From positions 1-18,937 of the IMG/VR virus record IMGVR_UViG_2547132278_000005: a stretch of 18,937 nt of DNA; one strand, given 5' to 3'. The notes below the pieces were generated by a model, which ran no database searches, was not told where the DNA came from, and saw only the letters and a list, made by a program, of their open reading frames with translations. A program made the translations under genes and the position numbers. Positions 1,395-18,937 of the stretch are shown piece by piece. The stretch comes from a virus (taxonomy: Duplodnaviria > Heunggongvirae > Uroviricota > Caudoviricetes). Position 1 is the first letter of the stretch. Each line of letters opens with the position of its first letter.

Positions 1395-1707
1395 CGGTTA
1401 CCTTCTCCACTTTCACAGAACATAACGGCACTTCGCTGTCGGATGCTTTTGCTGTTTGGGATTATCAAAGCGGCAGATATTCTTTCATCTTAAATTTTAC
1501 GTCTTTATCCTGACTGATGTTTATCCTGTTTGGCTGCGAAATAAATATAAAATTAATATATATGTTGTAATGATATATTTTTATAAATTATTCCCTGCGT
1601 GAATTTTAATAAATTTAATCTATCCCTTTATACGCAATACATTTACTTTCCTCTTTTGATGATCTTAAATGTCTTATTTTTCGTAATGTGTATAACAAGG
1701 AATAGTG

Positions 1708-2223
1708 ATGAAATTTAAAAAATGTCTTCTGCCTGTGGCAATGTTAGCGTCATTCACTCTGGCAGGATGCCAGTCAAATGCTGACGATCATGCTGCCGAT
1801 GTTTATCAAACCGATCAACTGAATACCAAACAAGAAACTAAAACCGTTAATATTATTTCCATTCTTCCCGCAAAAGTTGCCGTAGACAACTCCCAAAATA
1901 AACGGAACGCACAAGCCTTCGGCGCGCTTATTGGCGCAGTCGCTGGCGGTGTTATCGGCCACAACGTCGGGTCTGGCAGCAATTCCGGAACGACGGCAGG
2001 TGCAGTTGGCGGCGGAGCTGTAGGCGCGGCAGCGGGTTCTATGGTGAATGATAAAACCTTAGTGGAAGGTGTTTCTTTAACCTATAAGGAAGGCACCAAA
2101 GTGTATACCTCTACCCAGGTGGGTAAAGAGTGCCAGTTTACGACAGGTTTAGCCGTTGTTATTACCACGACGTATAACGAAACGCGTATTCAGCCAAATA
2201 CCAAATGTCCTGAAAAGAGCTAA
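1708..2223 (+). CDS. Outer-membrane lipoprotein with glycine-zipper region (YcfJ/SlyB/Pcp-like)
   Basis: Signal peptide with lipobox LAGC; Gly/Ala-rich stretch GALIGAVAGGVIGHNVGSGSNSGTTAGAVGGGAVGAAAG resembling YcfJ-type glycine zippers; ATG at 1708 with AAGGA SD (the ORF track starts at the GTG at 1705). Confidence 0.8.
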   Translation: MKFKKCLLPVAMLASFTLAGCQSNADDHAADVYQTDQLNTKQETKTVNIISILPAKVAVDNSQNKRNAQAFGALIGAVAGGVIGHNVGSGSNSGTTAGAVGGGAVGAAAGSMVNDKTLVEGVSLTYKEGTKVYTSTQVGKECQFTTGLAVVITTTYNETRIQPNTKCPEKS

Positions 2224-2238
2224 TAATCAGGAGGAGTC

Positions 2239-2778
2239 ATGAAGAAAGTTTTTCTTTGCGCCATCTTAGCCTCCTTAAGCTATCCGGCTATCGCCTCATC
2301 ATTGCAGGATCAACTCTCTGCTGTCGCAGAAGCGGAACAGCAAGGTAAAAATGAAGAGCAAAGGCAGCATGACGAATGGGTCGCGGAGCGCAACAGGGAA
2401 ATCCAGCAAGAGAAGCAACGTCGCGCAAATGCCCAGGCCGCCGCTAACAAAAGAGCGGCAACGGCAGCGGCAAATAAGAAAGCTCGTCAGGATAAACTGG
2501 ACGCCGAAGCCACTGCGGACAAAAAACGCGATCAAAGTTATGAAGATGAGCTACGCAGCTTAGAGATTCAGAAACAAAAACTGGCGCTGGCGAAAGAAGA
2601 AGCCCGCGTTAAGCGCGAAAACGAATTTATCGATCAGGAACTGAAGCACAAAGCTGCGCAAACCGATGTGGTGCAATCTGAAGCTGACGCCAACAGAAAT
2701 ATGACTGAAGGCGGTCGCGATCTGATGAAAAGCGTGGGCAAAGCAGAAGAGAACAAATCGGAAAGCTGGTTTAATTAA
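2239..2778 (+). CDS. Secreted/periplasmic charged coiled-coil protein
   Basis: Strong SD GGAGGAG; N-terminal signal peptide (MKKVFLCAILASLSYPAIA); remainder highly charged and Ala/Lys/Glu/Gln-rich, predicted helical. Confidence 0.75.
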   Translation: MKKVFLCAILASLSYPAIASSLQDQLSAVAEAEQQGKNEEQRQHDEWVAERNREIQQEKQRRANAQAAANKRAATAAANKKARQDKLDAEATADKKRDQSYEDELRSLEIQKQKLALAKEEARVKRENEFIDQELKHKAAQTDVVQSEADANRNMTEGGRDLMKSVGKAEENKSESWFN

Positions 2779-4901: not shown

Positions 4902-7400
4902 TTATATGGCTACCATGGCTGTAGAGCCAGAGCCATAGGCACTTGATTCTAACTCGAGAGTGTAATATCCATTCTTAGTACCACCATCAACTCCTGACCA
5001 ATCAAATGATAATGAAATCCAGTAACCACTTTCACTAGGATCTTGCACAAGATTGTCACCCATACCCCTTATACGCCTAATAGGTTGATTAGGGCCGACA
5101 GAATCAACTTCATATATATCTGTCATATTTCGTCCTATCTGTCTGGCTGTGATAACAGGCCAAGAGCCACTATAATTTAATATAGTAACAAGGAATTGAG
5201 TGTCATTGTTTATCTTGGAAAGTATAGCTTCAATATACCCATTACCATGCGTTCCTCCTTTTGAGTTTATGCGTAGCTTTGCTATCCCAGTGTCAAACAT
5301 ATTTAGTCTGTTATCAAACGTTCTTGGATGCAGATCAGCTGGAAGAGGCAATCGAATAGAAGATAAAGTATATGGGGATGGTGTATCTTCTGGATTACCT
5401 ATGATCATATTTGGTAATCTTACTACAATTGATTCTCTAACCCCTTTTTGAATACCAGTTACCGGTTGGGATAAATGAACATGGACTGGGCGTATAGTAA
5501 TCCCCTGAATACTTGCATATCCTGTTGTTGTACCATTAAGATTATTAAATATAGCTATAGTTTTCCACCCTCTCCCCACTAAATTAGCAGCTCGTTTGGG
5601 AATTGTATCAAGTTTATGATTATGTCTATTTCTTAAAAAACGACCTGTTGATTGCTGAGCATATAAATTATGCCATAAGCTAGAACGTTGTGTTGAATAT
5701 GGATATATATCAACTGCTCCGGCATACCATCCATCAGTGACAATTGATATCTGATTATCATCCCAATAACCAATTACATCTACCTCAGCAGCCTCAGCAT
5801 CAAGATAAAAACTAAATGTTGCCATTGCTGCTGTATTAATGGGAAAGCCACCAAGAATACCTTGTAAAGTTGAAGCTCTTTGATTATAAACATTCACTAA
5901 GTTTGAATATACATCATAAAATCCGACTTGATCAGATTGTTTTCCAGGCCATGTATGCACTTCAGATGATATTGGTCTGTTACCCTGAAGTAACCCTCCA
6001 CCCAAAAGCATGGATACCATTGCCTCTCCTAAAATAGCATATCCTTTACTATTAAAGTGAACAGGGTCGCTTTGAATAGAACCATACTGTCTATTATAAG
6101 CAATTTCATGGGCAGGAAAATAAGCACATCCATAAACTGATGCAAGATTTCTTATTGACTCTCCCCACATTTGCCAAAGAGGATCCCCTTCCCCATTACC
6201 ACCGCTGGCAGGACTACAAAGTACAACCCCCATCCCCCAGTCAATAAGCTTACGAATAAATAACTCCATATTTTTCATATATGTATCGTAAGTCTGGCTA
6301 TCAGTATTAGCGGAGTCGTTAATTGCATACATTAAAAATGCTATATCGCAATTTGGATTAGACTGCCAATCAGGTTCATTATAAGCACGGTACGCTGTAT
6401 AACCTGATTTTGCTCGAACAGTTATTGTTACCGGGCAGCCAGACAATATTGGAAGTGCGTTCTTTATAGCCTTTGGATATGTCATTGTTGCATGGCGATA
6501 ATTATCACCAACGCAAACATCATCATCTTCTGGAGCGATAGTATCGGATGTATTAACATCATATCCAGCCGTTATTGAGTCCCCCTGACACAATATTTTT
6601 ATCCCTATTTTTTTTCGTAACTTATAATGAGCTAACGTAAGGTTTCTGATATTTTTTGAACGGTATTCTGCACTATCAAGAGATATCAACCACTCTTGAA
6701 TATTACGATTATCCGATGTATTAATAATGCTGGCACCTGTTGGCTTTGCCAACTCAATAAGTACATCAGATGCTGAACCAGATTCAGGAAGGACCATTAT
6801 CGGATTTCCAGAGTCATCCATAGCAACAATCTTATTCTTACGCTGCTCAATTCCCGGCAAAGCTGGTATAGGTTCAGGGGTTCGTAGCGTTCTGATCTGG
6901 TTTGTTTCAGAAACTCCATCAACATAATTTTTAGTCGCCGCATCTTGAGCGCGTGACGGTTCACGAAGATTGCGAATGTAGTTTCCCTGTGCATCATAAT
7001 AGTTAGCCACAAACGACGGCTTGCGTAACGCCAGGCTAAACCAGCTACGAACCTGCTGAATCAACATCGTTATTTTATCAAAAGCATTCTCATGCACTTC
7101 TGCAAAAAACTTTCCCTGATTACGCAGATCCATTTCCTGAGTAACAGGAAGCTCACGAGCTATAGATATCTGATGACCTCTAGCCAACGCCTCCGACAGA
7201 ACAACACTGCCGCCGTTGTACCCTCCAGCCCCGGTAACTGTGTAATCAGTATCAAGGGTCAGCACACTGACATTCTCGTTCAGGTCAACAACCTGCACCA
7301 CCAGATCCGATTTATTGAAAATCCTAAAGGTGTAAGGAAATGATGTCGTAACGCCGTTACCTGTGTATTCGTTGTGGTCAACTTCGGTTGAGACCGTCAT
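4902..7400 (-). CDS. Tailspike / receptor-binding protein with T7 gp17-like N-terminal anchor and central SGNH (GDSL) esterase domain
   Basis: 832 aa; N-terminus (YTGNGVTTSFPYTF...LVVQVVD...VLTLDTDYTV) resembles the conserved podovirus tail-fibre anchor; SGNH blocks GDS at 6576-6584 (ILCQGDSITAGYD) and DPVH (catalytic Asp/His) in SDPVHFNSKGY; SD GGAGA. Confidence 0.85.
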   Translation of the reverse strand: MTVSTEVDHNEYTGNGVTTSFPYTFRIFNKSDLVVQVVDLNENVSVLTLDTDYTVTGAGGYNGGSVVLSEALARGHQISIARELPVTQEMDLRNQGKFFAEVHENAFDKITMLIQQVRSWFSLALRKPSFVANYYDAQGNYIRNLREPSRAQDAATKNYVDGVSETNQIRTLRTPEPIPALPGIEQRKNKIVAMDDSGNPIMVLPESGSASDVLIELAKPTGASIINTSDNRNIQEWLISLDSAEYRSKNIRNLTLAHYKLRKKIGIKILCQGDSITAGYDVNTSDTIAPEDDDVCVGDNYRHATMTYPKAIKNALPILSGCPVTITVRAKSGYTAYRAYNEPDWQSNPNCDIAFLMYAINDSANTDSQTYDTYMKNMELFIRKLIDWGMGVVLCSPASGGNGEGDPLWQMWGESIRNLASVYGCAYFPAHEIAYNRQYGSIQSDPVHFNSKGYAILGEAMVSMLLGGGLLQGNRPISSEVHTWPGKQSDQVGFYDVYSNLVNVYNQRASTLQGILGGFPINTAAMATFSFYLDAEAAEVDVIGYWDDNQISIVTDGWYAGAVDIYPYSTQRSSLWHNLYAQQSTGRFLRNRHNHKLDTIPKRAANLVGRGWKTIAIFNNLNGTTTGYASIQGITIRPVHVHLSQPVTGIQKGVRESIVVRLPNMIIGNPEDTPSPYTLSSIRLPLPADLHPRTFDNRLNMFDTGIAKLRINSKGGTHGNGYIEAILSKINNDTQFLVTILNYSGSWPVITARQIGRNMTDIYEVDSVGPNQPIRRIRGMGDNLVQDPSESGYWISLSFDWSGVDGGTKNGYYTLELESSAYGSGSTAMVAI

Positions 7401-7503
7401 GTTAAATCTCCAGATAGTCGCAGCACCCGTTGCGCCGCATATCCGGTTATTCTATTACCTTAAAAACCACATATGGATAGATAACCCATAAATACGAATA
7501 GAT

Positions 7504-7520
7504 ATTACCTTTCGGGTAAT
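7504..7520. promoter_or_regulatory. Operator-like palindrome ATTACC-tttcg-GGTAAT (copy 1 of 4)
   Basis: Perfect 6-bp inverted arms with 5-bp spacer in the divergent region between the tailspike and the LexA-box gene; the same arms recur at 8624, 8717 and 9725. Confidence 0.5.
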
Positions 7521-7556
7521 TTGCAAAACGTGCTGGATAGCAAACAAATTATTTGC

Positions 7557-7576
7557 TACTGTATAAATATACAGTT
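7557..7576 (+). promoter_or_regulatory. LexA (SOS) box
   Basis: TACTGTATAAATATACAGTT against consensus TACTGTATATATATACAGTA (CTGT-N8-ACAG, 18/20), ending 20 bp upstream of the ATG at 7596. Confidence 0.75.
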
Positions 7577-7595
7577 ATTGCATGGAGAAGATAAG

Positions 7596-7853
7596 ATGCA
7601 GCAGTATCACTATCCACTGGAAGACGGATTTACCGAAAGGATTCACACGCCGGGAGGCGTCAGATCACTAGTGGAGGGATCGCACTTGATGAAATTACTC
7701 CGGGATCTCGATAAGGATGGATTTAATGTCGATGGCCCACTTGCCGAACTGACTGCACTGATTAACTACGTCACCAGCTCACAGATGTCTATGCGGGATC
7801 TGCAAACACATCTCGACTATTGTGCCGAACAATTACGAAAACAAACCCGGTAA
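7596..7853 (+). CDS. Small SOS-regulated protein (85 aa), paralog of the C-terminal domain of the AntA-like antirepressor; putative antirepressor module
   Basis: ATG with SD GGAGAAG directly downstream of the LexA box; aligns with residues ~130-210 of the 9004-9660 protein (shared GxxSL.E.S.LM.LL..L..DG..V.G..AELT...Y......RD.QTH..Y). The ORF track starts upstream at 7521, but that extension overlaps the promoter/LexA box. Confidence 0.65.
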   Translation: MQQYHYPLEDGFTERIHTPGGVRSLVEGSHLMKLLRDLDKDGFNVDGPLAELTALINYVTSSQMSMRDLQTHLDYCAEQLRKQTR

Positions 7854-7860
7854 ATTTAAA

Positions 7861-7876
7861 GGCCGCAAGAGCGGCC
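7861..7876. terminator. GC hairpin (GGCCGC-aaga-GCGGCC) between convergent genes, putative bidirectional terminator
   Basis: Perfect 6-bp GC stem flanked by AT-rich sequence on both sides; overlaps the stop of the minus-strand 7876-8604 gene. Confidence 0.5.
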
Positions 7877-8604
7877 TATCGTTTCGCTTTGTGCTCGTCC
7901 CAGCACGTTTTGCACCATGCCATTAAGCCATCCGCATTTTGATTATTAGGGTAAAAGCTTGTTCGTTTTCTGCGGACATTACAAATTGGGCACCACTTCA
8001 TATGGCGTGTATTCTTTGGGCCATCGAGACACCTTGCACACCACTTAGTCAATCCATCTGGATTTTTTGACGATTTCCTGAATTTTTCATATGGTAGGTT
8101 TATTCTGCATCGCAAGCACTGCTTGCTACCACTTGAAACTCTGTTAGCTGATTCTTCTTTTGGCGGCGATACAGAAGGTATTCTTGCTGGCTCTGATACT
8201 GCCTGAGGTGCTTTTTTAGATGACTGAGACGATATGTCATCACCAGGGAATCTTCCATGATATGCCGGACGCGTTGACACTCCAGGTGGAAGCTCAGCTG
8301 TAAACGGCTTTGGCTGAATCAGTTGCCTCTCTTTTGCTAACTCCTGCTGTTTATAATATGTCTGGATTACCGCACTATCATAAGCAGGAGGTGCGGAAAT
8401 ATTAGGCGCATTACCTCCAGTTTTTTGAAACTGAGTAGAGGTGTGTTCTATCACCTGTGTACGATTAATCGTTATCTCCCCATCTTCGGTCTTTATCGTT
8501 TTGTTATGATTAACGACCGTACGATCAGAGATCTTAGTCTTGTTCTGGTTGATAACGTAAATAATCACCGCAACCACACCAACAACTATCCAGAAAACTT
8601 CCAT
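7876..8604 (-). CDS. Membrane-anchored protein with two tandem C-x2-C-x20-C-x2-C zinc-ribbon repeats
   Basis: N-terminal TM helix (FWIVVGVVAVIIYVI), Pro/Ser-rich linker, then CLRCRINLPYEKFRKSSKNPDGLTKWCARC and CPICNVRRKRTSFYPNNQNADGLMAWCKTC (shared N.DGL..WC..C); SD GAGGA. Confidence 0.75.
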   Translation of the reverse strand: MEVFWIVVGVVAVIIYVINQNKTKISDRTVVNHNKTIKTEDGEITINRTQVIEHTSTQFQKTGGNAPNISAPPAYDSAVIQTYYKQQELAKERQLIQPKPFTAELPPGVSTRPAYHGRFPGDDISSQSSKKAPQAVSEPARIPSVSPPKEESANRVSSGSKQCLRCRINLPYEKFRKSSKNPDGLTKWCARCLDGPKNTRHMKWCPICNVRRKRTSFYPNNQNADGLMAWCKTCWDEHKAKR

Positions 8605-8623
8605 TGCTTTTCCTCACAATAAC

Positions 8624-8640
8624 ATTACCTTAAAGGTAAT
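8624..8640. promoter_or_regulatory. Operator-like palindrome ATTACC-ttaaa-GGTAAT (copy 2 of 4)
   Basis: Perfect palindrome about 20 bp upstream of the start codon of the 7876-8604 gene, abutting its SD. Confidence 0.5.
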
Positions 8641-8716
8641 ATCTTGCTTTCAGGTGATCAAGCGTTAAACGCAATCAACCAAATACGGTTGATTTTAATA
8701 TTTCTTCGCGTTTATC

Positions 8717-8733
8717 ATTACCTTTGCGGTAAA
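8717..8733. promoter_or_regulatory. Operator-like palindrome ATTACC-tttgc-GGTAAa (copy 3 of 4)
   Basis: Same arms and spacing as the other copies; lies at the head of the structured leader upstream of the AntA-like gene. Confidence 0.5.
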
Positions 8734-8767
8734 TTTACATTGCACTCCTCTTGTGCCATAGTAATCG

Positions 8768-8845
8768 GGCACTGGCAAAATCCAGTGCCGGGATTGGTCT
8801 CCCGGATTACTAAGTGGCGCATACCACGCCAGACGTGGTTTTTTT
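8768..8845 (+). other. Structured non-coding leader: two GC hairpins followed by a terminator-like hairpin with T-run (possible attenuator or small RNA)
   Basis: GGCACTGG-caaaat-CCAGTGCC (8768-8789); CCGGGA-ttggtc-TCCCGG (8788-8805); CCACG-ccaga-CGTGG-TTTTTTT (8824-8845). No credible ORF or RBS in this stretch. Confidence 0.3.
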
Positions 8846-9003
8846 ATGCGTATAGCACAGTCATGCCAGAATTATGGTGGGCTGAATGGGGGTCCGAAAG
8901 GACGCCGGTACCACTTAGGCCGGTAAGACCAACTCCGTTCAGTTCACCACCATCTGATTGGTCTCAGCGGTGGTGATGTAATTCGCTAAGTGGAGACGCC
9001 ATC

Positions 9004-9660
9004 ATGAACGCTCAACTCATCCCCGTATTCAACGGCACTATATCTAACGAAACAGCCCTACTTTGTAATGCCCGCGATCTGCACGCTTTTTTAGGTGTTA
9101 AAAAGGTGTTTGCAGCATGGATTACAAATCGCATATCAGAATACGAATTCATTGAAAATCAAGACTATATTTTGCTTTCCAATTTGGGAAAGCAAACATC
9201 TGGTAGAGGCGGCCACAACCGCAAAGAGTACCACCTCACCCTTGATACAGCCAAAGAGCTGGCGATGGTCGAGCGTAACGAAAAAGGTCGCCAGGTGCGA
9301 CGCTACTTCATTGAATGCGAGAAACGTTTAAGACAACAAGAAACAAAAGTGGAGAAGGTCTTGTCAGGCTTCATGCCCGCCATTATGGAGGCGATCAAGC
9401 TGGAAGACAAAAAAGAATACAGCGCCCCACTGAAGCCCGGCTACCGTAGCCTGATTCATTCGCCGTCTGGTGTTCTCGGCCTGACGGAGAACTCACTGCT
9501 GATGAATTTGCTGAACCAGTTACAGGAAGACGGGCACGACGTATCGGGCGCGGCGGCGGAACTGACCACCATGTTCTGCTACATCGTCGGTGTGAGCAAA
9601 TGCCTGCGTGATATCCAGACCCACGCGGAGTACATCAACGACAAGGCAGGGTTCTTCTGA
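9004..9660 (+). CDS. AntA-family phage antirepressor-like protein (N-terminal AntA domain plus C-terminal domain shared with the 7596-7853 protein)
   Basis: N-terminus LIPVFNG...[33 protein letters not shown]...[14 protein letters not shown]...[11 protein letters not shown] matches the AntA/AntB antirepressor family pattern; SD GGAG. Confidence 0.8.
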
Positions 9661-9724
9661 CAGAACGGCGGCACAGGGATGTGCCTTTAAATAATTCTGT
9701 ACGATTGCAGGTGAATAGCTTACT

Positions 9725-9741
9725 ATTACCTCAAGGGTAAG
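9725..9741. promoter_or_regulatory. Operator-like palindrome ATTACC-tcaag-GGTAAg (copy 4 of 4)
   Basis: Same arms and spacing; about 60 bp upstream of the 9800 start codon and downstream of a weak hairpin terminator (9670-9696). Confidence 0.5.
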
Positions 9742-9799
9742 AAAGCATTTTTAATCTTCCCTTCAAAACGCGTCCTGTAGCCAAACATGGGAGGACGAA

Positions 9800-10432
9800 A
9801 TGAGAACAAATACAACAAGAAAAGCGATGCCATACATTATCCCAGAAGCAGATTTCGATAGAAAACTGAACATGTCTGAGAAGAACACTAGTCACACCGA
9901 AAGCTACTTAGCGAAAGGTGTGGTTGATTTCGTTCTTCCGGGATTCACAACACCTTATGGTTATCGCCTTGTAAAATCTTGTAATGGCGATCATTACAGA
10001 ATGATTACTACCAGCGATACTCCAGAAACGGTGTATGCGGTTAAGTTAATCTTTCGGGAAGATATCGTCGAAGCCAAAAGAACATGTACGCAGATCATGG
10101 TATGGCGTACGCCTAATGTTATTCATGACCGTGCTGTTCATGGTTTGCCTCAGATTTTTTTTCAGTTCTTCCTAGAGCAATATGCGATCGTTGTATCTGA
10201 TGAGCAACAAACAATCGATGGGAGAAGATTCTGGGAAAGAATGATTTCTTGGGCTATAAACACCCCGGGATATAATGTATACGTTTCAGATGGCTCTGAA
10301 GAAGATAGACCTCTTAGCTTCATGACATCATGGGATGATTTCTATAGCCAGTGGGCTGATTTCTGTTGGGGCAGTGATAAAGATGTGCATACCCACAGAC
10401 TACTGGTTATAAGCAAAGATAAACTGCATTAA
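9800..10432 (+). CDS. Hypothetical protein (210 aa), unassigned accessory-island gene
   Basis: Strong SD GGGAGGA; soluble, Trp/Asp-rich, no recognised motif; followed immediately by a strong terminator. Confidence 0.75.
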   Translation: MRTNTTRKAMPYIIPEADFDRKLNMSEKNTSHTESYLAKGVVDFVLPGFTTPYGYRLVKSCNGDHYRMITTSDTPETVYAVKLIFREDIVEAKRTCTQIMVWRTPNVIHDRAVHGLPQIFFQFFLEQYAIVVSDEQQTIDGRRFWERMISWAINTPGYNVYVSDGSEEDRPLSFMTSWDDFYSQWADFCWGSDKDVHTHRLLVISKDKLH

Positions 10433-10437
10433 TAGAA

Positions 10438-10458
10438 GCCCGCGCCGCGGGCTTTTTT
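10438..10458 (+). terminator. Rho-independent terminator
   Basis: GCCCG-cgccg-CGGGC followed by TTTTTT, 6 bp after the stop codon at 10430-10432. Confidence 0.8.
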
Positions 10459-10495
10459 GTGTCTGCGGATTCCCGCCCGGGCGGCGGTGGCATTC

Positions 10496-10522
10496 GTTAA
10501 AAACAAGGCCGCGAAAGCGGCC
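10496..10522 (-). terminator. Rho-independent terminator for the minus-strand membrane-protein gene
   Basis: On the minus strand GGCCGC-tttc-GCGGCC is followed by TTGTTTTTAA; lies just downstream of the stop at 10532. Confidence 0.6.
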
Positions 10523-10531
10523 TGTGACATG

Positions 10532-10828
10532 TCACGCTCTTTTTCTGAATGATAGCCATTCGAAAAATGATGACATTCCACCGCAGACAATAGCAAATAT
10601 GATCCCACCAAAGAAGAGAAGGCCAGCCTGCCACCACTCCCACCGCCATACATCCACAGCGCCAACCATACCAACAATCGCTCCAACAAATGGAATATAG
10701 CTCACGATGAAAGCAATGGGGGCTGCAATTATCCAGTGCAATCCCCACCATGATTCAAGCCCAGCCATAATTGCTGCCAACTGAAAAAGACCAACGACGA
10801 TATAAACAATGAATCCTATAGCTTGCAT
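10532..10828 (-). CDS. Small polytopic membrane protein (98 aa), candidate superinfection-exclusion-type protein
   Basis: SD AGGTGA; 3-4 hydrophobic helices, Trp-rich loop (VWRWEWWQAG); sits directly after the ejection-protein genes, the position sieA occupies in P22. Confidence 0.7.
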   Translation of the reverse strand: MQAIGFIVYIVVGLFQLAAIMAGLESWWGLHWIIAAPIAFIVSYIPFVGAIVGMVGAVDVWRWEWWQAGLLFFGGIIFAIVCGGMSSFFEWLSFRKRA

Positions 10829-10840
10829 GTAGTCACCTAT

Positions 10841-10993
10841 TTACCCAGTAAAAATCAGAGGCCTCCCCTCAATAAGGCTTGCAACAAGAACTATTCCCTG
10901 CACAACAAAGATGAACCAGCAAATAGCTTGAGTCTGAGGGTTAAGAAAATATTTGTAGCGGTCAATAAATAACAACCCACCAGAAATTATCAC
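10841..10993 (-). CDS. Possible small hydrophobic peptide (50 aa, GTG start); speculative
   Basis: Hand-translated minus-strand ORF (V/M)IISGGLLFIDRYKYFLNPQTQAICWFIFVVQGIVLVASLIEGRPLIFTG; no clear SD. Confidence 0.2.
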   Translation of the reverse strand: MIISGGLLFIDRYKYFLNPQTQAICWFIFVVQGIVLVASLIEGRPLIFTG

Positions 10994-11023
10994 ACTCAAA
11001 ATAATTAAAAACACAACACTTCC

Positions 11024-13498
11024 TTATTGCGGAGTGACATCCTGAGGTCGCCACCAGTATGTCTGGTTAAACTCTTTCTTCGAACGTTGCTCCATTTTAC
11101 GCAAATAGCCTGGTGAAAAATACTCCTGCATCTGGTTAAAGATCATATGATCGAGAGCCGCCTTTAAGTACCAGAGATTCGCACCTGGCATCAAACCTTT
11201 CCCCAGCTTCACCAGATCACCACCAGTCTGCTCACTCTTCCCTTCCACAGCATTTAACGGTATGCCCTGAGCAATCTTCACTACGTCATCAACCAGACCA
11301 GCTACCGGGCCAAGCATCGACGCCAGCGCGCCGCTTCCGTACCTAGTGTGATCTGACAATAAAAAGTCACCGTAAAGGCCAAGACCACCACCTTTCAGTA
11401 GAGCACCAAGCCAAAATTTAGCAGCATCTTCTCCTGTCATCTCGCGAGGATTACGACCAGACGCAAGGTCGTTAAGTTGCTGCGACAAAGCGCCAAGAAT
11501 GGTCGTACTGGCAATAAACGTCGCAATATATGCCGCACGCCCACCAGCAGACGGCATACCCATAGCGCGTGACCAGTGACGCATAACCACCGAGATAGGG
11601 AACGATTTAAACAGGAAAACACTTCTCGTTAATTCACCTTTCCATGTTCCACGCTGAATACCAGAACCGGTTATCAGTTGCTCACGTGCTCCCGGTGTAA
11701 TAACAGCCATATCAACTTCTTCAGTTACGGCACCGAGCAGTTTACGCATTGCCTCAAATTTCACGCGTTCAGGCTCACCAAGATGTTTAACTGCTGAATC
11801 AGGGATACGCATAATGCTTTCCGGTGTCAGCATCGTATTATTGCCGTTCCCCCAGTCCTCCTGTTGCGCCAGCTTCCATACGCTCCAGTCTGTGTCAGTA
11901 ATCCCTTTGCTTTTCAGGATACGAAAATCAGAATCATCGAGGCTACGAAGGTCTGGTGTCCGTGACACTACTTCTCCCAGGCTTCCCATCATGGTTACGC
12001 CATAGGCGCGCTTGTGCGCATCTGACCATGCTGTAAGCCCACTGGCACGCATTACCGCCGTTGCCGCCCAACGAGACACAGACGGCCCCATATTATCCAT
12101 CGCCCAGCGGTTAACGCTGCCAAGTAGAGATTCCATCGCCAGGCCAGCGCGGCGCGCCCGCGCAAGCTCAGTACGGTTCGTTGGGTCCATAGCTTCAAGC
12201 TGGTTGCGAAATAACTGGTTCATTGGAAGGTTGGTAACCTTCGCAGACAGATACATGGTTCCAAGATCAGAGAACGATGACAGCAACGCGGATCCGAGTC
12301 TGCTGGCAACCAGCCAGTTGCGGATATTGTCAGACCATCGCGCGATGTGCGGATTCGCTACAGGCTGTGTTTTTCCGGAAATAAAGTTGTACAAGTTCTC
12401 TGTTTTGTTCGCCAGACGCTCGACGCTACCGGTTTTACTCGGGTTAGCTGTTGCCGTTTCTGCCTTAACCTGATCAAGAAGGGAGCGGAAAACATGATCG
12501 GGGTTTGGACCATATGTTTCCACCAGAGCAATATCTTTACTGATACCTTCCAGGTGACCGACCATGATTTCCCATAGAGAGCGATCACCATAAAGTTGTT
12601 GATATTGGAGATAGGAATCTGCATCTTTGAAATGTATCTGTCGTGATGCATTACCACGGTTAGCACGTGCGCCGGAAATTCGCATTCCGGTATCAGTAAG
12701 CTTATTCAGCCCACCAGTAGCGATCGTGTTATAAGCCTCTCCAAGAAATGCAGACAACTCGGCATCGTTCATCAGTTGTCCATCGGCTCGGGTATAATAT
12801 TTGCGATCCAGCTTACCTATAACATCGCCAACCCACTTATCCTTTGATACCGCCCCAACCTTTTCCATAGAATGATGTTGAGGGATCCCCCAGTTTTCGA
12901 GATAGCCAATGTCCCCACCAGCATCATTAAACCGGCGGCGCAGCAGCTCTGTAACTTCTCTCCACGCCTTAGCACCTTTTCTTGCTTTAGCATTGCCAGT
13001 ATTTTGCCCCCGCATTTCATATACCAGGTCACGTACGCCCGCTTCATCTTCAAACAGACCAAAAAAGCGAGGATCAACTGCTTCGAATGCCTCCTGCAAT
13101 TGACTCAATGCATAATCACGGGTGGCTTTTGTTCTGGATTCAACAGAGAGGAAATTAGATTTACCGTCTGCATTAAAAGCTATAGTACGGTTAAGAGCGC
13201 CAAGTTTCCCATCAGCCCCTTGATAGCTATTGATAAATTTATCCAATCTCTGACGCGCGGCTATAGTGAGAGCCACACGACGTTTCTTTAATGCCGCTTC
13301 TCGCTGTAATTCTTCAGATGCCAATTGTGCTGCTCGATATAGCCGCTCTGATTCGGAAAGTTGTCTCCACGACATCGGGTCATCACGAGCAATGGAGCGC
13401 ATATTTCGATAAATGCGGTCTTCAATGTTCTGTATTTCTCGCGCCGTTAACGTGCGCTGCGCCGCCTGCTGGACCGCTTGTATACATTCCTGTCTCAT
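11024..13498 (-). CDS. Large virion internal/ejection-type protein (824 aa), last gene of the structural operon
   Basis: Long intact ORF with SD GAGG, 5 nt after the upstream gene stop; size, composition and position are typical of podovirus internal/DNA-ejection proteins. Family not recognised. Confidence 0.8.
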   Translation of the reverse strand: MRQECIQAVQQAAQRTLTAREIQNIEDRIYRNMRSIARDDPMSWRQLSESERLYRAAQLASEELQREAALKKRRVALTIAARQRLDKFINSYQGADGKLGALNRTIAFNADGKSNFLSVESRTKATRDYALSQLQEAFEAVDPRFFGLFEDEAGVRDLVYEMRGQNTGNAKARKGAKAWREVTELLRRRFNDAGGDIGYLENWGIPQHHSMEKVGAVSKDKWVGDVIGKLDRKYYTRADGQLMNDAELSAFLGEAYNTIATGGLNKLTDTGMRISGARANRGNASRQIHFKDADSYLQYQQLYGDRSLWEIMVGHLEGISKDIALVETYGPNPDHVFRSLLDQVKAETATANPSKTGSVERLANKTENLYNFISGKTQPVANPHIARWSDNIRNWLVASRLGSALLSSFSDLGTMYLSAKVTNLPMNQLFRNQLEAMDPTNRTELARARRAGLAMESLLGSVNRWAMDNMGPSVSRWAATAVMRASGLTAWSDAHKRAYGVTMMGSLGEVVSRTPDLRSLDDSDFRILKSKGITDTDWSVWKLAQQEDWGNGNNTMLTPESIMRIPDSAVKHLGEPERVKFEAMRKLLGAVTEEVDMAVITPGAREQLITGSGIQRGTWKGELTRSVFLFKSFPISVVMRHWSRAMGMPSAGGRAAYIATFIASTTILGALSQQLNDLASGRNPREMTGEDAAKFWLGALLKGGGLGLYGDFLLSDHTRYGSGALASMLGPVAGLVDDVVKIAQGIPLNAVEGKSEQTGGDLVKLGKGLMPGANLWYLKAALDHMIFNQMQEYFSPGYLRKMEQRSKKEFNQTYWWRPQDVTPQ

Positions 13499-13503
13499 TT
13501 AAT

Positions 13504-15306
13504 TTAACCTCTCAAGAAACACGCCACAGCGACATCAAACAGGCTGGAATCCTGTATTGCCTGCTCACTTTCCCTGTTCGCTTCATCCAGTACTTCACGC
13601 GCGCTGCGCGATTGTGGATTACCATCATCATCCAGCACGGTGATTATCATGTCCGGATATTCAAGCAGCGAGTCTTCAGCTATACGCAGATCAATATCTC
13701 CTGCCGGATCTGCCATCATTTTTTGTTCTGTCTGTTGCAATATCTTACCGGGCTCAAAAGGAGCTACTTCGTCTGGCGTCCTGACCTCTGCTGTTTTATA
13801 GAATGAAACAGCCTGAGCATTAAGTTCACTTTCTGCCTGCTGTCTCCGAGCCAGTTCTGCTCGAGCTTCAAAAAACTGACCGCCAGGCTCATGCGGTGCC
13901 AACGCGTTACGGGAAAATTCCAGGCGTTCTTGTGCCTGCCGGATTCGTTGGTCAATATCCCGAAGTCTGGCCTGTTTATCTGATCGAGCACGAGACAAAG
14001 CTTTACCGCTACCGGTTGGCTCTTCTGCAAGAATTTGTGCGCGCTGTTCAGTGAGATTTTCAATAATTCGTTGGCTATTAGCGATTTCAGACTGGTAAAC
14101 CTGTCTATCGCCACGAGGCAAAAGCTGCGCAGCCTGTTCTTCAAGCAACCGATTTTCGATAGCGCGCGCCGTTACTCCATCATCTACAGATGACAGAGCC
14201 TCATTAACTGCCTGAGACAGCAGATTCTTGCGCCCAGGAATTTCACTGAAAGATGCAGACTCAACAATGCTGGCTACGTCTACAGGTCTCCCCTGGCTAA
14301 CATCAGACATGGTTTTTCGCAGAGCCTGAATGTGCGAATTACGCGAAAGCACGTTGATCGGCACGCCGGGAGCAATATCAATTTCAGCATGATGAGCGGC
14401 ATTCGCCGCCAGTGCAGCATCGACATCAACTGGTGAAAAATTTGGTGCGCTTGTAGACTCGCCGCGAGAGTTAATAAATCTGCCGACACCACCAAACGCC
14501 ACCCCAAGAACAGCATCAATAGCAATTGCCTGTCGATCCAACACATCATACTGGTTAGCCATTTCGCTATAGCCACCATCACGAAGCGTTTTTGCAGTAA
14601 GCCCACGCTGTGCCATACCGAACGCAATATTTGTACCTGCGGCATAGGCAATATCTGGCGTTGCACGTACTGCTGTTGCTGCGGCGCGTCGCACTGAACT
14701 TTCACCCGTCCGCGCAAGCTGAGCCGCCACACCTTCCGCCAGCGCACCACCAGCACGTAACCCGAGGCTCATAGGGATCAGTGTTCCGGCACCAGCAGTA
14801 ATACCCTGCACTAATCCCGCTTCCTGCGCCGTCCTGAAATCAACACCCTGTGCTGTCAGCCGTTCAAACTCAGAAAAACCCTGTAGAGAAGTTACCGCCG
14901 CAGCACCTCCGACCGGACCACCGAGTGTTGTACCGACAACAGCCTGCCCGCCCATATCGAACAACCCATAAAGAACCTGCCCGGCGGTTCCGGTTGTCGC
15001 GGCATCAGGCGTCAGCCGCTTAACCTGCTGCTCTGCTAGTTTTCTCTGCTCGGCAATGTATGAAACTGAAGTGTCATTGAGCGAGGTGTTTTCGTTAACA
15101 AACTGAGCAATCGGGGATACGATTTTATCCATCCCTGCCCATAGCAACTGATCTGGCTTTGCCACCAGCCCGGAGTACAAACCAGACAATGCCGCTCCTA
15201 CAGCATTGTCGAAAAAACCAACATCGCTGTTAAAGCCCGCTGGATTTGATGCTGCTTCGTCAAGCTGCTGATTCTGGTTTACTGGATTAAGGCCAAAGTA
15301 ACTCAT
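13504..15306 (-). CDS. Virion internal/ejection-type protein (600 aa), Ala/Gly-rich
   Basis: ATGA start/stop overlap with the upstream gene at 15303-15306; Ala/Gly-rich low-complexity N-terminal half. Confidence 0.8.
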   Translation of the reverse strand: MSYFGLNPVNQNQQLDEAASNPAGFNSDVGFFDNAVGAALSGLYSGLVAKPDQLLWAGMDKIVSPIAQFVNENTSLNDTSVSYIAEQRKLAEQQVKRLTPDAATTGTAGQVLYGLFDMGGQAVVGTTLGGPVGGAAAVTSLQGFSEFERLTAQGVDFRTAQEAGLVQGITAGAGTLIPMSLGLRAGGALAEGVAAQLARTGESSVRRAAATAVRATPDIAYAAGTNIAFGMAQRGLTAKTLRDGGYSEMANQYDVLDRQAIAIDAVLGVAFGGVGRFINSRGESTSAPNFSPVDVDAALAANAAHHAEIDIAPGVPINVLSRNSHIQALRKTMSDVSQGRPVDVASIVESASFSEIPGRKNLLSQAVNEALSSVDDGVTARAIENRLLEEQAAQLLPRGDRQVYQSEIANSQRIIENLTEQRAQILAEEPTGSGKALSRARSDKQARLRDIDQRIRQAQERLEFSRNALAPHEPGGQFFEARAELARRQQAESELNAQAVSFYKTAEVRTPDEVAPFEPGKILQQTEQKMMADPAGDIDLRIAEDSLLEYPDMIITVLDDDGNPQSRSAREVLDEANRESEQAIQDSSLFDVAVACFLRG

Positions 15307-17255
15307 TGCGGAATATCTCCGGAGAATCTCTGACGCTTCTGAGTCAGATCAAGAACAACGGGAGAACCATCATCTTTCAGCAGATAACCAGTACCAAGTT
15401 TCACCAGGTACTGACTATCGCCGTAACTTTGCAAACCATACTGACCAGGCGGTGTTTTTATCCCTGTGCCAACAACTTGTTCATTCCAAACCTGATTAAC
15501 CTGCTTATCGAATTGCTCTGCAGACATTCCCCACGGCAAAAGAACATTCCCCATTCCGTTATAGTCATGCACGCCACCTGTAGCTACGTTAACAGCCTGT
15601 TTCCAGATATCATTGTCAATTTCGCCTGATACCACGCCTTTTTTCGCCATCACACCAGCGTAATAGTCCTTTGCGATCTCGTATGCCATTGATGCCCCCT
15701 GAGCATCACCAGCAAATGCATCCTTCACCATGTCAGAAAACTCAAGGCGAAGATCAGCATCTTTAGGCATCGGAATACCTTTCGCGTCATCAGTACCCTT
15801 ACGAGCCGCCGCACCAGCAAGAATTGTCTGCGCTGCGGTTTCAGGAGACACGGAAACATCAGGATTAAACCAGTTTTTTTCTGCCAAAATACCACCAGGC
15901 TTATCCATCAGTATCCCGGCAACGGCAGCAGATGGAGCGTTGGCACTGATCTGCTGTAGTGCTGACATATACACCTGCCCACCACCAGTGCTCTGCCTGA
16001 TGGTATCGAGATATGCTGCCTGTTGGGAAACTGGAGCATCACGAAAGAAAACACCGATCTGATTGGCCTCGTCTTTGGAAAAGAACGTCAGTGGAGTGCC
16101 ATATGACTTAGCAAGGTCACTGACCTGAGCGGCACGCAAGGCAACGCTCTGTCCAAAGTTATCCTTATTGCTCATGTCGATAGGCTTTGCCTGTCCGGAG
16201 GCAAGAGAGAACTGCACAGGATCCGACTGCCGCTGCTTTATCACCTGATTTGCAGCCGAAACAACGTTGTCATAAAGAGCTGCGCGTGCCGCATACCCCT
16301 CCCCTGTCTCACCAGTATCCGGGCGTAATTGCTCAACATATGCTGTAATGCTGCTTGTCGGCATGTTGCGGAAAGAGCCTATATACTGTCCGGCGATTTG
16401 CGTATTTCTGAACTCGGTATATCGCAGGTTTCCTTCTCTTACTCCATAAGCTGCAATAAAATCAGCCTCACCAGGTGGGTTAGGAAATTCAACGCCACGC
16501 ATATACGCAGCTGTCGCATCGCGAACCTGGCTGTCAATCATCGTTTTATATTCAGCCTGCTGCTGCCGACGCAGTTGATCCGCCTGTCGCATAAAACTTG
16601 CCTGCGCCTCAGGAGATGCCGCATCGAATGCTGCATTACCGGTATAGCGTTTGGTGTTGGTTGGAATTGTTGATAAACCAAGTGCTGCACTGACACCAGC
16701 AGTTAACTGCTGATCACTGTATGGCTGGCTACCGTTCTCATGATGGATAATGGCTGCACAAAGCGCCTTCAGGGTATCAGGATTAGATGCATCGAGAGGC
16801 TCATCAGCAGAAACGCCAAGTTGTTCGCACACTGCTTTGATATACGACATAGTGTCATTTTTATCAGTAGGCGGTGCCCAGCGATTAATTATCTCGCTGA
16901 CGGTATCAATACCCTGCCTCTGATACGACATCAGGTTTCGCCCTAATGCACGAATCCCGTGTTCAGGTGTTTCGAATTTAGCAAATCGACCATCATCACC
17001 GGTCTGGCCTACCCACGGATTAGTTTTGCTGTATTCGAGATTTCCTGGGTTATTGTTGCGTATGCCACGGGCACGCTCGGAAGAGTCACTATCTGCTACA
17101 GCACGGCGAGCTCCAGCAGCAGTATCACTTAACTCGCCATTACTTTGGATGAATGCGGTCGCATTGTTTGCCGACCACTGGGACAATGCGGCATCAGCAA
17201 CCTTCTCTTTAAACTCGACTTTCTTGGCCTGGGATTTGCTCGTCGCTCCAGCCAT
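15303..17255 (-). CDS. Virion internal protein with conserved N-terminal motif (RGIRNNNPGNLEYSK...ETPEHGIRALGRNL); possible virion-associated cell-wall enzyme
   Basis: Start placed at the ATG at 17255 (GAGGA 14 nt upstream, 47-nt overlap with the upstream gene); the ORF track's 17351 start would overlap by 142 nt and has no SD. Enzymatic assignment is unverified. Confidence 0.7.
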   Translation of the reverse strand: MAGATSKSQAKKVEFKEKVADAALSQWSANNATAFIQSNGELSDTAAGARRAVADSDSSERARGIRNNNPGNLEYSKTNPWVGQTGDDGRFAKFETPEHGIRALGRNLMSYQRQGIDTVSEIINRWAPPTDKNDTMSYIKAVCEQLGVSADEPLDASNPDTLKALCAAIIHHENGSQPYSDQQLTAGVSAALGLSTIPTNTKRYTGNAAFDAASPEAQASFMRQADQLRRQQQAEYKTMIDSQVRDATAAYMRGVEFPNPPGEADFIAAYGVREGNLRYTEFRNTQIAGQYIGSFRNMPTSSITAYVEQLRPDTGETGEGYAARAALYDNVVSAANQVIKQRQSDPVQFSLASGQAKPIDMSNKDNFGQSVALRAAQVSDLAKSYGTPLTFFSKDEANQIGVFFRDAPVSQQAAYLDTIRQSTGGGQVYMSALQQISANAPSAAVAGILMDKPGGILAEKNWFNPDVSVSPETAAQTILAGAAARKGTDDAKGIPMPKDADLRLEFSDMVKDAFAGDAQGASMAYEIAKDYYAGVMAKKGVVSGEIDNDIWKQAVNVATGGVHDYNGMGNVLLPWGMSAEQFDKQVNQVWNEQVVGTGIKTPPGQYGLQSYGDSQYLVKLGTGYLLKDDGSPVVLDLTQKRQRFSGDIPQ

Positions 17256-17817
17256 GCGCAATGCCGTAATCCTCAATTTGCTGGAAAGTTTGCTTATTAG
17301 CCAATACGTATGCGGCGTTGTCGCCATACAATGCTGCGGCATTTTTACCATTGTTCAGCAGCGTAGCCTGAAACTGGCCTTCTTCGTAGGCGTTTATTTG
17401 CCCTATCTCGTGCCGCCCGGCCTGCGTAGTGAACTGAATGCGCTGCTGCTGCGCCTGCTGCATGAAAGTATTACGAGCCTGTTCATCCGGCAGCGACATA
17501 GCCAGTTGTTCGACCTGAGCATCAAACTGCTGCGTATACTCATGGCCTTTTCCAATAGCATTTTTCCCTTTCAGGTTAAGCAACCCTGTTTCAGGGTTAT
17601 TCAGCAGATCGCTGCTTATCTGACTGAGGTTAAGAGATGCCTCCTGAGCCAGAGCGATATTGGCACGCTGTTTTGCCTGACCAAAAACATCAATAGTCTC
17701 TGCCCCTGCCCGAACAAAAGCATCACCAATACCTGGCTGAGAAAACGTCTGCAAGACTGCTGACTGAACTCCACGGCTCTCAACCTGACGTCCGGATACT
17801 GTTGGTACGACTGGCAT
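17209..17817 (-). CDS. Virion structural protein (202 aa)
   Basis: ATG at 17815-17817 with SD GGAGGA and a TAATG overlap with the upstream gene stop; the ORF track's 17892 start lies inside the upstream gene. Confidence 0.7.
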   Translation of the reverse strand: MPVVPTVSGRQVESRGVQSAVLQTFSQPGIGDAFVRAGAETIDVFGQAKQRANIALAQEASLNLSQISSDLLNNPETGLLNLKGKNAIGKGHEYTQQFDAQVEQLAMSLPDEQARNTFMQQAQQQRIQFTTQAGRHEIGQINAYEEGQFQATLLNNGKNAAALYGDNAAYVLANKQTFQQIEDYGIAHGWSDEQIPGQESRV

Positions 17818-18362
17818 TATAATCCTCCGGGTAATCTGGTTCCTGCTGCTGCCCCGATTGGCGCAGGAGTGCTTTGAGTAAACGGACTCCACGTCCCACC
17901 AAACATCTGGTACGCACCGTATGCCTTCAGAGGCGCAGTGAGCAATGTTGTTGCTGCTCCCACATTCCCCTGTTTACGGGCTGAACTGGCTTCTGCTTTA
18001 TAGTTGGCAGCCTGAACCTGATAACCGTAAGCCTCGCGTTGCGCGTTATTCACCGTCGTCAGCGAATCAAGAGCGCCAAACTGGGCAGTGTCGCCAAATA
18101 TATCCAGCGCGTTACCTGTAGATAAATCAGCGCCGGTAGCCCCCATTGTCGCCGCTTGTGTACCAAGCCGCTGTCGGGTCTCTCTGCGCCGTTGCTCAGC
18201 TTCAGCGTTACCTCTGTTTATTGCATCATTTGCCTGAGCAGTGGCTATATCTGCGTTCGCTTCTGCAACCTTCGAGGCATACTTTCCCTGTTGGTACTGG
18301 GTGTATGCCTGAATGCCACTCATGGCGAGCATTGCGCCACCAGCAATAACCGGATCGCACAT
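17817..18362 (-). CDS. Virion structural protein (181 aa), Ala/Gln-rich
   Basis: SD GGAGAG; TAATG overlap with the upstream ORF stop at 18362-18364. Confidence 0.7.
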   Translation of the reverse strand: MCDPVIAGGAMLAMSGIQAYTQYQQGKYASKVAEANADIATAQANDAINRGNAEAEQRRRETRQRLGTQAATMGATGADLSTGNALDIFGDTAQFGALDSLTTVNNAQREAYGYQVQAANYKAEASSARKQGNVGAATTLLTAPLKAYGAYQMFGGTWSPFTQSTPAPIGAAAGTRLPGGL

Positions 18363-18679
18363 TATTTTCTCTCCATGTGAAATCTGTGGAAATTAAGACC
18401 AAGAGCACCATAAGGCGCGGCTTCTTCAAGCCTGAATCCAAGCCAGTGCAGCCATGCTTTGGCAACATGGTTTCGCTCGTCGACATAGTTTTCCAGGCGC
18501 GGATAAACTGCCAGCATCTGCTGCAATACAGGGCGGCAGTGGCGAAGAAATGTCTTCTGATATTTTTCGATACGGCTGGTTCCGACCAGCCAGGGCGTAC
18601 CATTGCCACCGATCATTGACGCCGGAGATACGCCAAACATGGTTACCAGTTCTCCGTTCGCGAACCCTGACCAGGCCAT
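18362..18679 (-). CDS. Phage protein, possibly a 3' remnant of a gene truncated at its 5' end by the IS21-family insertion
   Basis: The frame is open to 18733 but has no convincing RBS (ATG at 18677-18679 without SD; the ORF track's TTG at 18724 lies next to the IS end). Confidence 0.45.
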   Translation of the reverse strand: MAWSGFANGELVTMFGVSPASMIGGNGTPWLVGTSRIEKYQKTFLRHCRPVLQQMLAVYPRLENYVDERNHVAKAWLHWLGFRLEEAAPYGALGLNFHRFHMERK

Positions 18680-18690
18680 AGTCGCAGTGC

Positions 18691-18937
<247 letters not shown>

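Follow-up and report, generated by a model that had tools for sequence, protein, structure and literature searches.

An epsilon15 gp15-type ejection protein gene with a predicted Enc34-type peptidoglycan-hydrolase domain, split by one extra base in a draft prophage contig

The minus-strand ORF at positions 15303–17351 of the window (the whole analyzed stretch of 18,937 nt) is real but does not represent a separate gene: it makes up a single gene together with the overlapping ORF at 17209–17817. Taken together, 15303–17817 is very probably the Escherichia coli (phiV10-type, Uetakevirus) orthologue of gp15 of Salmonella phage epsilon15, split by one base. The overlap of the two ORFs, the two candidate ATG codons and the apparent N-terminal position of a conserved motif all arise because one extra C shifts the reading frame. 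The gene belongs to a prophage integrated in the genome of ETEC strain TW10722 and lies on contig AELB01000040.1 (AELB denotes this strain; PMC4309559). The protein is already catalogued: both this internal virion protein and its family of muralytic domain are known, and the underlying biology is ordinary for the group.

The genes and ORFs of the region are as follows.

11024..13498, minus strand: epsilon15 gp17 homologue, 824 aa, virion structural protein (PHROG 684 full length; synteny)
13504..15306, minus strand: epsilon15 gp16 homologue, 600 aa, downstream of the split gene (PHROG 1145 full length; synteny)
15303..17351, minus strand: the reported ATG-initiated ORF, 682 aa; authentic protein only downstream of window position 17231
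17209..17817, minus strand: ORF of the N-terminal fragment, 202 aa (translation; PHROG 992 positions 1–133; PHROG 1044 positions 1–201)
15303..17817, minus strand: complete orthologue of epsilon15 gp15 / phiV10 gp18, an internal virion / ejection protein; 2515 nt here, 2514 nt (837 aa) in all relatives
17231..17233, minus strand: CCC run (GGG on the plus strand) containing the extra base, from the alignment to phiV10 and phiv142-3
17817..18362, minus strand: T7 gp14-family internal virion protein, 181 aa, epsilon15 gp14 homologue, upstream of the split gene (Pfam PF24072, E 2.5e-7, above the gathering score; PHROG 418 'internal virion protein')

One gene in two reading frames

The profile of PHROG 992 (764 positions) is covered by both ORFs in succession, the upstream one matching positions 1–133 and the 682-aa one positions 132–764, which means that the two ORFs are consecutive pieces of one gene. 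Deletion of one C yields a single 837-aa ORF. The restored sequence exactly matches the public protein WP_096847610.1; it is 98.1% identical to phiV10 gp18 (837/837 residues aligned, gap-free), 99.0% identical, without gaps, to the protein of the E. coli ML35 prophage, and 59% identical to epsilon15 gp15 over 815 residues. In phiV10, epsilon15, phiv142-3 and ML35 the gene is annotated as a single CDS. In databases the protein bears inconsistent names, being variously called 'head protein', 'putative lytic transglycosylase', 'structural protein P5' and 'endolysin'.

The position of the gene agrees with this assignment, as it is situated between the gp14-family gene and the homologues of gp16 and gp17, and its end is overlapped by the gp16 homologue by 4 nt, likewise in phiV10. 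The adjacent gp13 homologue is disrupted by IS100 at window position 18690/18691.

In the upstream ORF, residues 1–195 are authentic gp15-like sequence, followed by seven out-of-frame residues, PGQESRV, and the stop codon at 17209–17211. The downstream frame becomes open right after a TGA at ca. 17354, and the ATG codons at 17351 and 17255 are out-of-frame codons inside the ancestral gene. The overlap with the upstream ORF is 47 nt for the start at 17255, as the first-pass annotation had stated, and 143 nt rather than the stated 142 nt for the start at 17351; both overlaps exist only in the broken frame, in which gene callers see a 202-aa ORF followed by an overlapping one of 650 or 682 aa.

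Distribution and origin of the extra base

The alignment with phiV10 and phiv142-3 contains a single gap, the extra C at window position 17233, which turns CC into CCC on the coding strand. The shorter run is found at each of 94 related loci; the extra C is absent from all of these and from all 338 records of complete E. coli genomes, the best of which is 99.7% identical, with this gap as the sole difference. The 22-mer with CCC has no exact matches in IMG/VR, GTDB representative genomes or JGI metagenomes, while the 21-mer with CC has 95 matches in IMG/VR. The 202-aa truncated product was found on this contig only.

The closest comparison is provided by NJYO01000067.1 (GCA_002458245.1), an independent assembly in which this prophage recurs, IS100 junction included. 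Over 13,465 alignment columns it shows no mismatches with the window and one gap, the extra C. This stretch includes 452 runs of three bases and 162 runs of at least four, and one run, the CCC, differs; none of the 59 runs of at least five bases does. The single uninterrupted reading frame broken in our contig is intact in NJYO01000067.1, and we regard this comparison as decisive for the absence of the extra base in the same prophage. GCA_002458245.1 may derive from a strain clonally related to TW10722 and not from that strain. A later TW10722 assembly is GCF_018884385.1 (PMC10761095). Among all the sequences compared, this 2010-era draft assembly is the only one with the extra base.

These data bear on the possibility that the overlapping ORFs are functional, either through a programmed +1 ribosomal frameshift or as two proteins, the second having an internal start at 17255 or 17351. 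Both frames are indeed open over 47–143 nt, and the ATG at 17255 is preceded, at a distance of 14 nt, by GAGGA. However, the two-frame layout is found in no relative, including phages and prophages that are 98–99% identical as well as the otherwise identical copy, and homology changes frame exactly at the inserted base. The downstream-frame residues encoded between 17351 and 17233 have no homologue, and the PHROG matches to the 682-aa ORF begin at residues 32–47 or later. By inspection, the site CAA-AUC-CCA-GGC gives the P-site tRNA no cognate +1 re-pairing under the established rules for +1 frameshift sites, a prfB-like context of a Shine–Dalgarno sequence plus a stop codon is absent from the site, and a three-base run is too short for transcriptional slippage. 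A functional overlap is thus effectively refuted, and programmed frameshifting was rejected as the layout was seen in 0 of 94 loci, in none of the 338 E. coli records and not in the sister contig. The first-pass annotation had left the choice between a true start and a programmed frameshift unsettled; the question dissolves into a one-base insertion seen only in this contig.

As to how the base arose, a homopolymer-length error of sequencing or consensus seems the most likely source, and we favor it with reasonable confidence. The type of the change is exactly as expected of homopolymer-sensitive sequencing, and the platform used for this assembly was presumably 454. A real frameshift mutation of very recent date in the TW10722 copy, which would make the gp15-like gene a true pseudogene, seems rather unlikely to us. 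In favor of such a mutation, IS100 interrupts the neighboring gp13 homologue, and hence the prophage is probably non-functional and its virion genes are free to decay. Further, the lack of any other difference from the sister assembly, long homopolymers included, means that our assembly is not generally error-prone here, and the affected homopolymer is short, with none of the 59 longer runs differing, while pyrosequencing errors are commoner in longer runs. Still, the gene is intact in the sister assembly, which agrees with ours in the IS100 junction and at all other bases over 13.4 kb; the mutation would have had to arise after the two copies diverged, although that divergence left not a single SNP. 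Nor has the extra C been found in any other sequence from the collections searched.

The case calls for caution. In an old draft contig, what is probably a miscall of one homopolymer has given rise to two 'genes', to an N-terminus that is false and to what looks like a recoding site; annotation or scans based on AELB01000040.1 would spread two truncated proteins instead of WP_096847610.1.

The predicted peptidoglycan-hydrolase domain

The conserved 46-aa motif occupies residues 95–140 of the 682-aa ORF (window positions 16932–17069) and begins at residue 250 of the restored protein. The first-pass annotation had placed it near the N-terminus of an Ala/Gln-rich protein. The motif is real, but in the true protein the domain around it is central (residues ca. 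245–381 of 837), and the 682-aa ORF, with 12.8% Ala and 7.0% Gln, is mildly rich in these residues. The features of the domain are listed below; the codons are those aligning with key residues of the endolysin of phage Enc34.

16674..17084, minus strand: predicted peptidoglycan-hydrolase domain of the Enc34 endolysin / PM2 P5 type (PHA02564), residues 245–381 of the restored protein
16737..16739, minus strand: codon of Glu360 (HHENGS), aligned with the catalytic Glu131 of Enc34; E116 of the 39-sequence alignment, nearly invariant
16842..16844, minus strand: codon of Tyr325 (MSYIKA), aligned with Enc34 Tyr95; Y81 of the alignment, invariant
16878..16880, minus strand: codon of Trp313 (NRWAPP), aligned with Enc34 Trp79; W69 of the alignment, nearly invariant, with A70 and P71 invariant

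The domain matches the catalytic domain of Enc34 (7q47_A) with a phmmer E-value of 1.8e-17 over 119 residues, and Gp29 (9vvp_L) with an E-value of 2.4e-38. It has the distinctive all-helical fold of 7q47, and in a Foldseek search 7q47 was its only match at E ≤ 0.001. In Enc34, Glu131 is catalytic, and Trp79 and Tyr95 also lie in the active groove; the Enc34 domain lyses permeabilized Gram-negative cells (PMC8943055). The columns of E360, W313 and Y325 are invariant or at least 90% conserved in 39 homologues. The same fold is present in PM2 P5 (bioRxiv 10.1101/2022.07.18.500477). Structural evidence firmly places the enzymatic domain in the Enc34-type family. These observations support the suggestion that the motif represents the core of a virion-associated cell-wall-degrading domain of this type, with the catalytic Glu and the Trp/Tyr pair intact; the first-pass proposal of such a domain holds up on the similarity to 7q47, the three conserved residues and the location in an ejection-protein operon.

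The same proposal had cited the T7 gp16 transglycosylase as an example, and that part does not hold. In the epsilon15 record AY150271.2, gp15 is labeled 'putative lytic transglycosylase' (from HHpred, 4anr), and the Enc34 fold distantly resembles both GH23 and GH73, being circularly permuted with a superimposable catalytic Glu (PMC8943055). Against a T7 gp16-like (GH23/SLT) lytic transglycosylase, neither ORF matched a Pfam family, SLT included, at E ≤ 0.1, or an NCBIfam family at E ≤ 0.01; the goose-type lysozyme/SLT fold was not recovered, with no GH23 structure among the fold matches listed; and Foldseek yielded nothing but 7q47 at the above threshold. Moreover, the sole data on bond specificity in this domain family point to an N-acetylglucosaminidase, as the PHA02564 domain of M4Lys frees GlcNAc from muropeptides (PMC7143992). 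We therefore consider a transglycosylase quite improbable.

Judging from these similarities, epsilon15/phiV10-type podoviruses may breach murein at entry using a virion-delivered GH73-like N-acetylglucosaminidase with the Enc34/PM2-P5 fold, carried by the gp15-position ejection protein, in place of the annotated lytic transglycosylase; we see the case for this as evenly balanced. If true, T7-like ejection operons would have two classes of muralytic domain for entry, this one being the second and differing in mechanism from the first.

Possible role at entry and comparison with known systems

In the ejection-protein operon the intact 837-aa protein takes the place that gp15 has in T7, directly after the gp14-family gene. 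Virions presumably carry it inside and, on infection, release it into the periplasm, where the hydrolase domain may open murein locally and so allow a trans-envelope DNA conduit to form. The bond cut is probably GlcNAc–MurNAc, by analogy with the homologous domain of M4Lys.

The phiV10 gp18 (YP_512272.1), WP_096847610.1 and epsilon15 gp15 (AAO06078.1) are the same gene in the same gp13-gp14-gp15-gp16-gp17 synteny. Unlike in these, the extra C gives two overlapping ORFs in our contig, and in our contig only.

The closest solved relative of the domain is Gp29 of PDB 9vvp (1295 aa, four chains), also a large phage protein, sharing the RGIRNNNPGN...HE(N/T)GS domain. In Gp29 the domain takes up the very N-terminal end (residues 3–146), and the rest of the protein has no detectable similarity to ours. 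In the endolysin of Hafnia phage Enc34 (PDB 7q47; PHA02564) and in M4Lys of Salmonella phage BSPM4, both of them small endolysins encoded in lysis cassettes, the domain is N-terminal and the C-terminal part is a transmembrane anchor. Here an 837-aa virion/ejection protein carries the domain in its middle, and the domain would act at entry, from the outside. For lysis the phage has another endolysin of its own, a GH19 protein, as annotated in the ML35 relative. P5 of corticovirus PM2, cited in phiV10's own annotation, has a domain of the same family but is small, belongs to a tailless phage that contains a membrane, and is outside any podovirus ejection operon. Many stand-alone homologues of ca. 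140 aa bear the name 'structural protein P5'.

The general logic is that of the N-terminal transglycosylase of T7 gp16 and of gp35-36 of K1E/K1-5/SP6, which have lysozyme activity: in all of these a muralytic domain is carried by an internal virion protein ejected into the periplasm. T7 gp16 represents a different enzyme family, as the domain described here has no SLT/GH23 match in sequence and none among the fold matches listed. Different podoviruses place muralytic domains on different ejection proteins, K1E/K1-5 on gp35 and T7 on gp16 (PMC8954989), and in K1E/SP6-type phages, likewise here, the domain is on the gp15-position protein (PMC8954989).

One gene behind two overlapping reading frames

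The ORF at 15303-17351 (minus strand, 682 aa) starts with ATG and carries the motif RGIRNNNPGNLEYSKTNPWVGQTGDDGRFAKFETPEHGIRALGRNL at residues 95-140 (window 16932-17069). It overlaps the 202-aa ORF upstream, which starts at 17817 (MPVVPTVSG) and has its stop codon at 17209-17211, by 47 nt with the ATG at 17255 and by 143 nt with the ATG at 17351. The first-pass annotation had described this overlap correctly, apart from being off by one nucleotide in the longer version. As a true feature of the gene, the overlap did not survive comparison with relatives: it results from one extra C in this assembly, and the relatives have a single CDS.

The two ORFs match successive parts of the same profiles: the upstream ORF covers positions 1-133 of PHROG profile 992 (764 positions) and 1-201 of profile 1044, and the 682-aa ORF covers 132-764 and 196-560, respectively. 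Megablast assigned the region to epsilon15/phiV10-like phages (genus Uetakevirus), with 2751 query bases against 2750 record bases in every full-length match. In phiV10, phiv142-3, epsilon15 and the prophage of E. coli ML35, the region holds a single CDS of 2514-2529 nt, flanked by the gp14 homologue and the gp16/gp17 homologues. A three-way alignment of the window, phiV10 and phiv142-3 has exactly one gap, at 17231-17233, where the window reads AAATCCCAGG and both phages read AAATCCAGG. With one C deleted, the region reads as a continuous 837-aa ORF, whose product (the restored protein) is 98.1% identical to phiV10 gp18 without gaps, 99.0% identical to the ML35 protein and 59% identical to epsilon15 gp15, and exactly matches WP_096847610.1, encoded on NJYO01000067.1 (GCA_002458245.1). 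Judging from these alignments, both ORFs belong to a single gene. The restored protein has the motif from residue 250 onwards, and thus not at its N-terminus; the earlier placement of the motif near the N-terminus holds for the 682-aa ORF only.

A programmed frameshift or an unresolved start, both raised earlier, can be set aside. The two-ORF arrangement is not conserved even in copies that are 98-100% identical, and the frame of homology switches at precisely the position of the extra base. At CAA-AUC-CCA-GGC, +1 re-pairing is not possible and there is no slippery site; transcriptional slippage would need a run longer than three bases. The downstream-frame residues encoded upstream of the shift matched nothing in a PHROG search.

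The surrounding prophage

Positions ~309-2980 of the window are non-phage E. coli chromosome, with 99% identity to the yfgG-yfgH-yfgI region of ML35.

Chromosomal genes matched to ML35
1705-2223, plus strand, yfgH
2239-2778, plus strand, yfgI

The prophage boundary lies near 2869-2980, with chromosome beyond it, and therefore the window holds an integrated phiV10-like prophage. The opposite contig end (18691-18937) is the left end of IS100, an IS21-family element whose istA begins at 18777 on the plus strand. The element interrupts the homologue of epsilon15 gp13, of which the 3' 329 nt are left (18362-18690), and because of this the prophage is probably defective irrespective of the gp15 frameshift. 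The phage/IS100 junction (18690/18691) was found in no record among the complete E. coli genomes searched and is present in NJYO01000067.1; it is a lineage-specific marker.

In the tailspike position, 4902-7400 (minus strand) encodes an 832-aa protein with GDSL/SGNH lipase-esterase Pfam matches (PF13472 and, weakly, PF00657), while ML35 has a GH28-related tailspike instead. This suggests an O-antigen-deacetylating tailspike and, since identity to relatives falls at this locus, a swapped receptor-binding module.

Origin of the extra base

The shorter run was found in 94 of 94 related loci. Among complete E. coli genomes, none of the 338 records matching a 301-nt probe was identical to it, and the best ones reached 99.7%, the gap being the sole difference. 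The 22-mer with CCC had no exact match in IMG/VR, GTDB (one genome per species) or JGI metagenomes, while the 21-mer with CC had 95 matches in IMG/VR. In a collection of 15 billion proteins, the truncated 202-aa and 650-aa products come from this one contig only.

The window is the whole of contig AELB01000040.1 (assembly GCA_000166555.2); AELB00000000 is the accession of the ETEC strain TW10722 (PMC4309559). The sister contig NJYO01000067.1, from the independent assembly GCA_002458245.1, carries the same prophage with the same IS100 junction in the gp13 homologue. Alignment of window positions 5303-18767 with this contig gave 13,465 columns, no mismatches and one gap, the extra C at 17233. 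This region contains 452 homopolymer runs of three bases and 162 of at least four, and only the CCC run differs between the contigs. Since they are identical save for the one gap, the insertion is, on this comparison, confined to one assembly of a single clone.

The extra C is most likely a homopolymer-length sequencing or consensus error, because a change from CC to CCC is the kind that such errors make, while a mutation would need to be younger than a split between the two copies that produced no SNP. A genuine mutation of very recent date in the TW10722 copy has a smaller though appreciable probability: selection on virion genes would be relaxed, as IS100 already disrupts the prophage, and a run growing from two to three bases is a relatively unlikely site for a pyrosequencing error. 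The 2010 draft of the contig was presumably sequenced by 454.

The assembly does not appear to be generally error-prone, as apparent indels relative to IS100 copies arose from the edges of the alignments and the end of the element is clean. Position 10839, upstream of a small ORF (10532-10828), differs in length by 1 nt from the ML35 prophage (A versus AA); we rejected it as a second assembly error, as 8 of 12 relatives share the version of the window, which indicates natural polymorphism. In practical terms, the error reading calls for a correction to AELB01000040.1, which most likely has one base too many at 17231-17233.

The predicted peptidoglycan-hydrolase domain and its position among ejection proteins

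When both ORFs and the neighbouring genes were scanned against Pfam and NCBIfam, the gene itself gave no match; the gp14-family neighbour alone matched Pfam. Residues ~245-381 of the restored protein, however, matched the catalytic domain of the Hafnia phage Enc34 endolysin (PDB 7q47, E 1.8e-17) and, more strongly, the N-terminus of the 1295-aa 'Gp29' (PDB 9vvp, E 2.4e-38). The first ~146 residues of the latter (chain L) are the closest solved relative. The entry is apparently a recent virion structure and may show how the domain sits inside the capsid; a literature search found no paper describing it. The domain has 2136 homologues at E ≤ 0.001, many of which stand alone at ~140 aa under the name 'structural protein P5', and its AlphaFold2 model, built from a 39-sequence alignment, is confident (pLDDT 92.4, pTM 0.87).

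The Enc34 domain has demonstrated muralytic activity, with Glu131 catalytic and Trp79 and Tyr95 important (PMC8943055). In the HMMER alignment these residues pair with the E of HHENGS, the W of NRWAPP and the Y of MSYIKA, respectively, and among the 39 homologues each of the three columns is either invariant or conserved to at least 90%.

Codons of the aligned residues in the restored protein
16737-16739, minus strand, E360 (Enc34 Glu131)
16878-16880, minus strand, W313 (Enc34 Trp79)
16842-16844, minus strand, Y325 (Enc34 Tyr95)

Muropeptide data on the homologous M4Lys domain point to an N-acetylglucosaminidase (PMC7143992), and PM2 P5 has the same fold (bioRxiv 10.1101/2022.07.18.500477). 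The virion-associated cell-wall-degrading domain proposed in the first-pass annotation was thus right in kind, being of the Enc34 type, but the analogy with T7 gp16 fails: sequence and fold tests support neither a GH23 transglycosylase of that type nor the corresponding note on epsilon15 gp15.

Naming of the gp15-like family is inconsistent across sources: 'head protein' in RefSeq phiV10/epsilon15 and PHROG 992, 'endolysin' in PHROG 873/1044, 'putative lytic transglycosylase' in the epsilon15 GenBank record, and also 'structural protein P5' and 'hypothetical protein'. The domain has no Pfam or NCBIfam model despite >2000 homologues. The protein itself is already known, having an exact database match after repair; much work exists on its phage group, and both a crystal structure and biochemical data are available for the domain family. 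The overlap was the sole unusual feature, and a non-biological one.

Neighbour of the restored gene
directly upstream, T7 gp14-family gene (Pfam PF24072)

Because it directly follows this gene, the restored gene falls at the gp15 position in an ejection operon of the T7 type. In epsilon15, ejected internal proteins build a tube across the envelope. The intact 837-aa protein would be packaged and then released into the periplasm on infection, where its central domain could cut peptidoglycan locally and make room for the DNA conduit; the flanking regions 1-240 and 400-837 would supply structural and assembly functions. PDB sequence searches found no solved relatives of these flanks and no matches for the gp16 and gp17 homologues.

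Muralytic domains shift between ejection proteins, residing in gp16 in T7 and in the gp15-position protein in K1E/K1-5 (PMC8954989; the epsilon15 gp11/12/13 assignment in its Table 1 conflicts with the epsilon15 record and was left out of the analysis). In the restored protein the predicted muralytic domain likewise lies on the gp15-position protein, as in K1E/K1-5 and unlike in T7.
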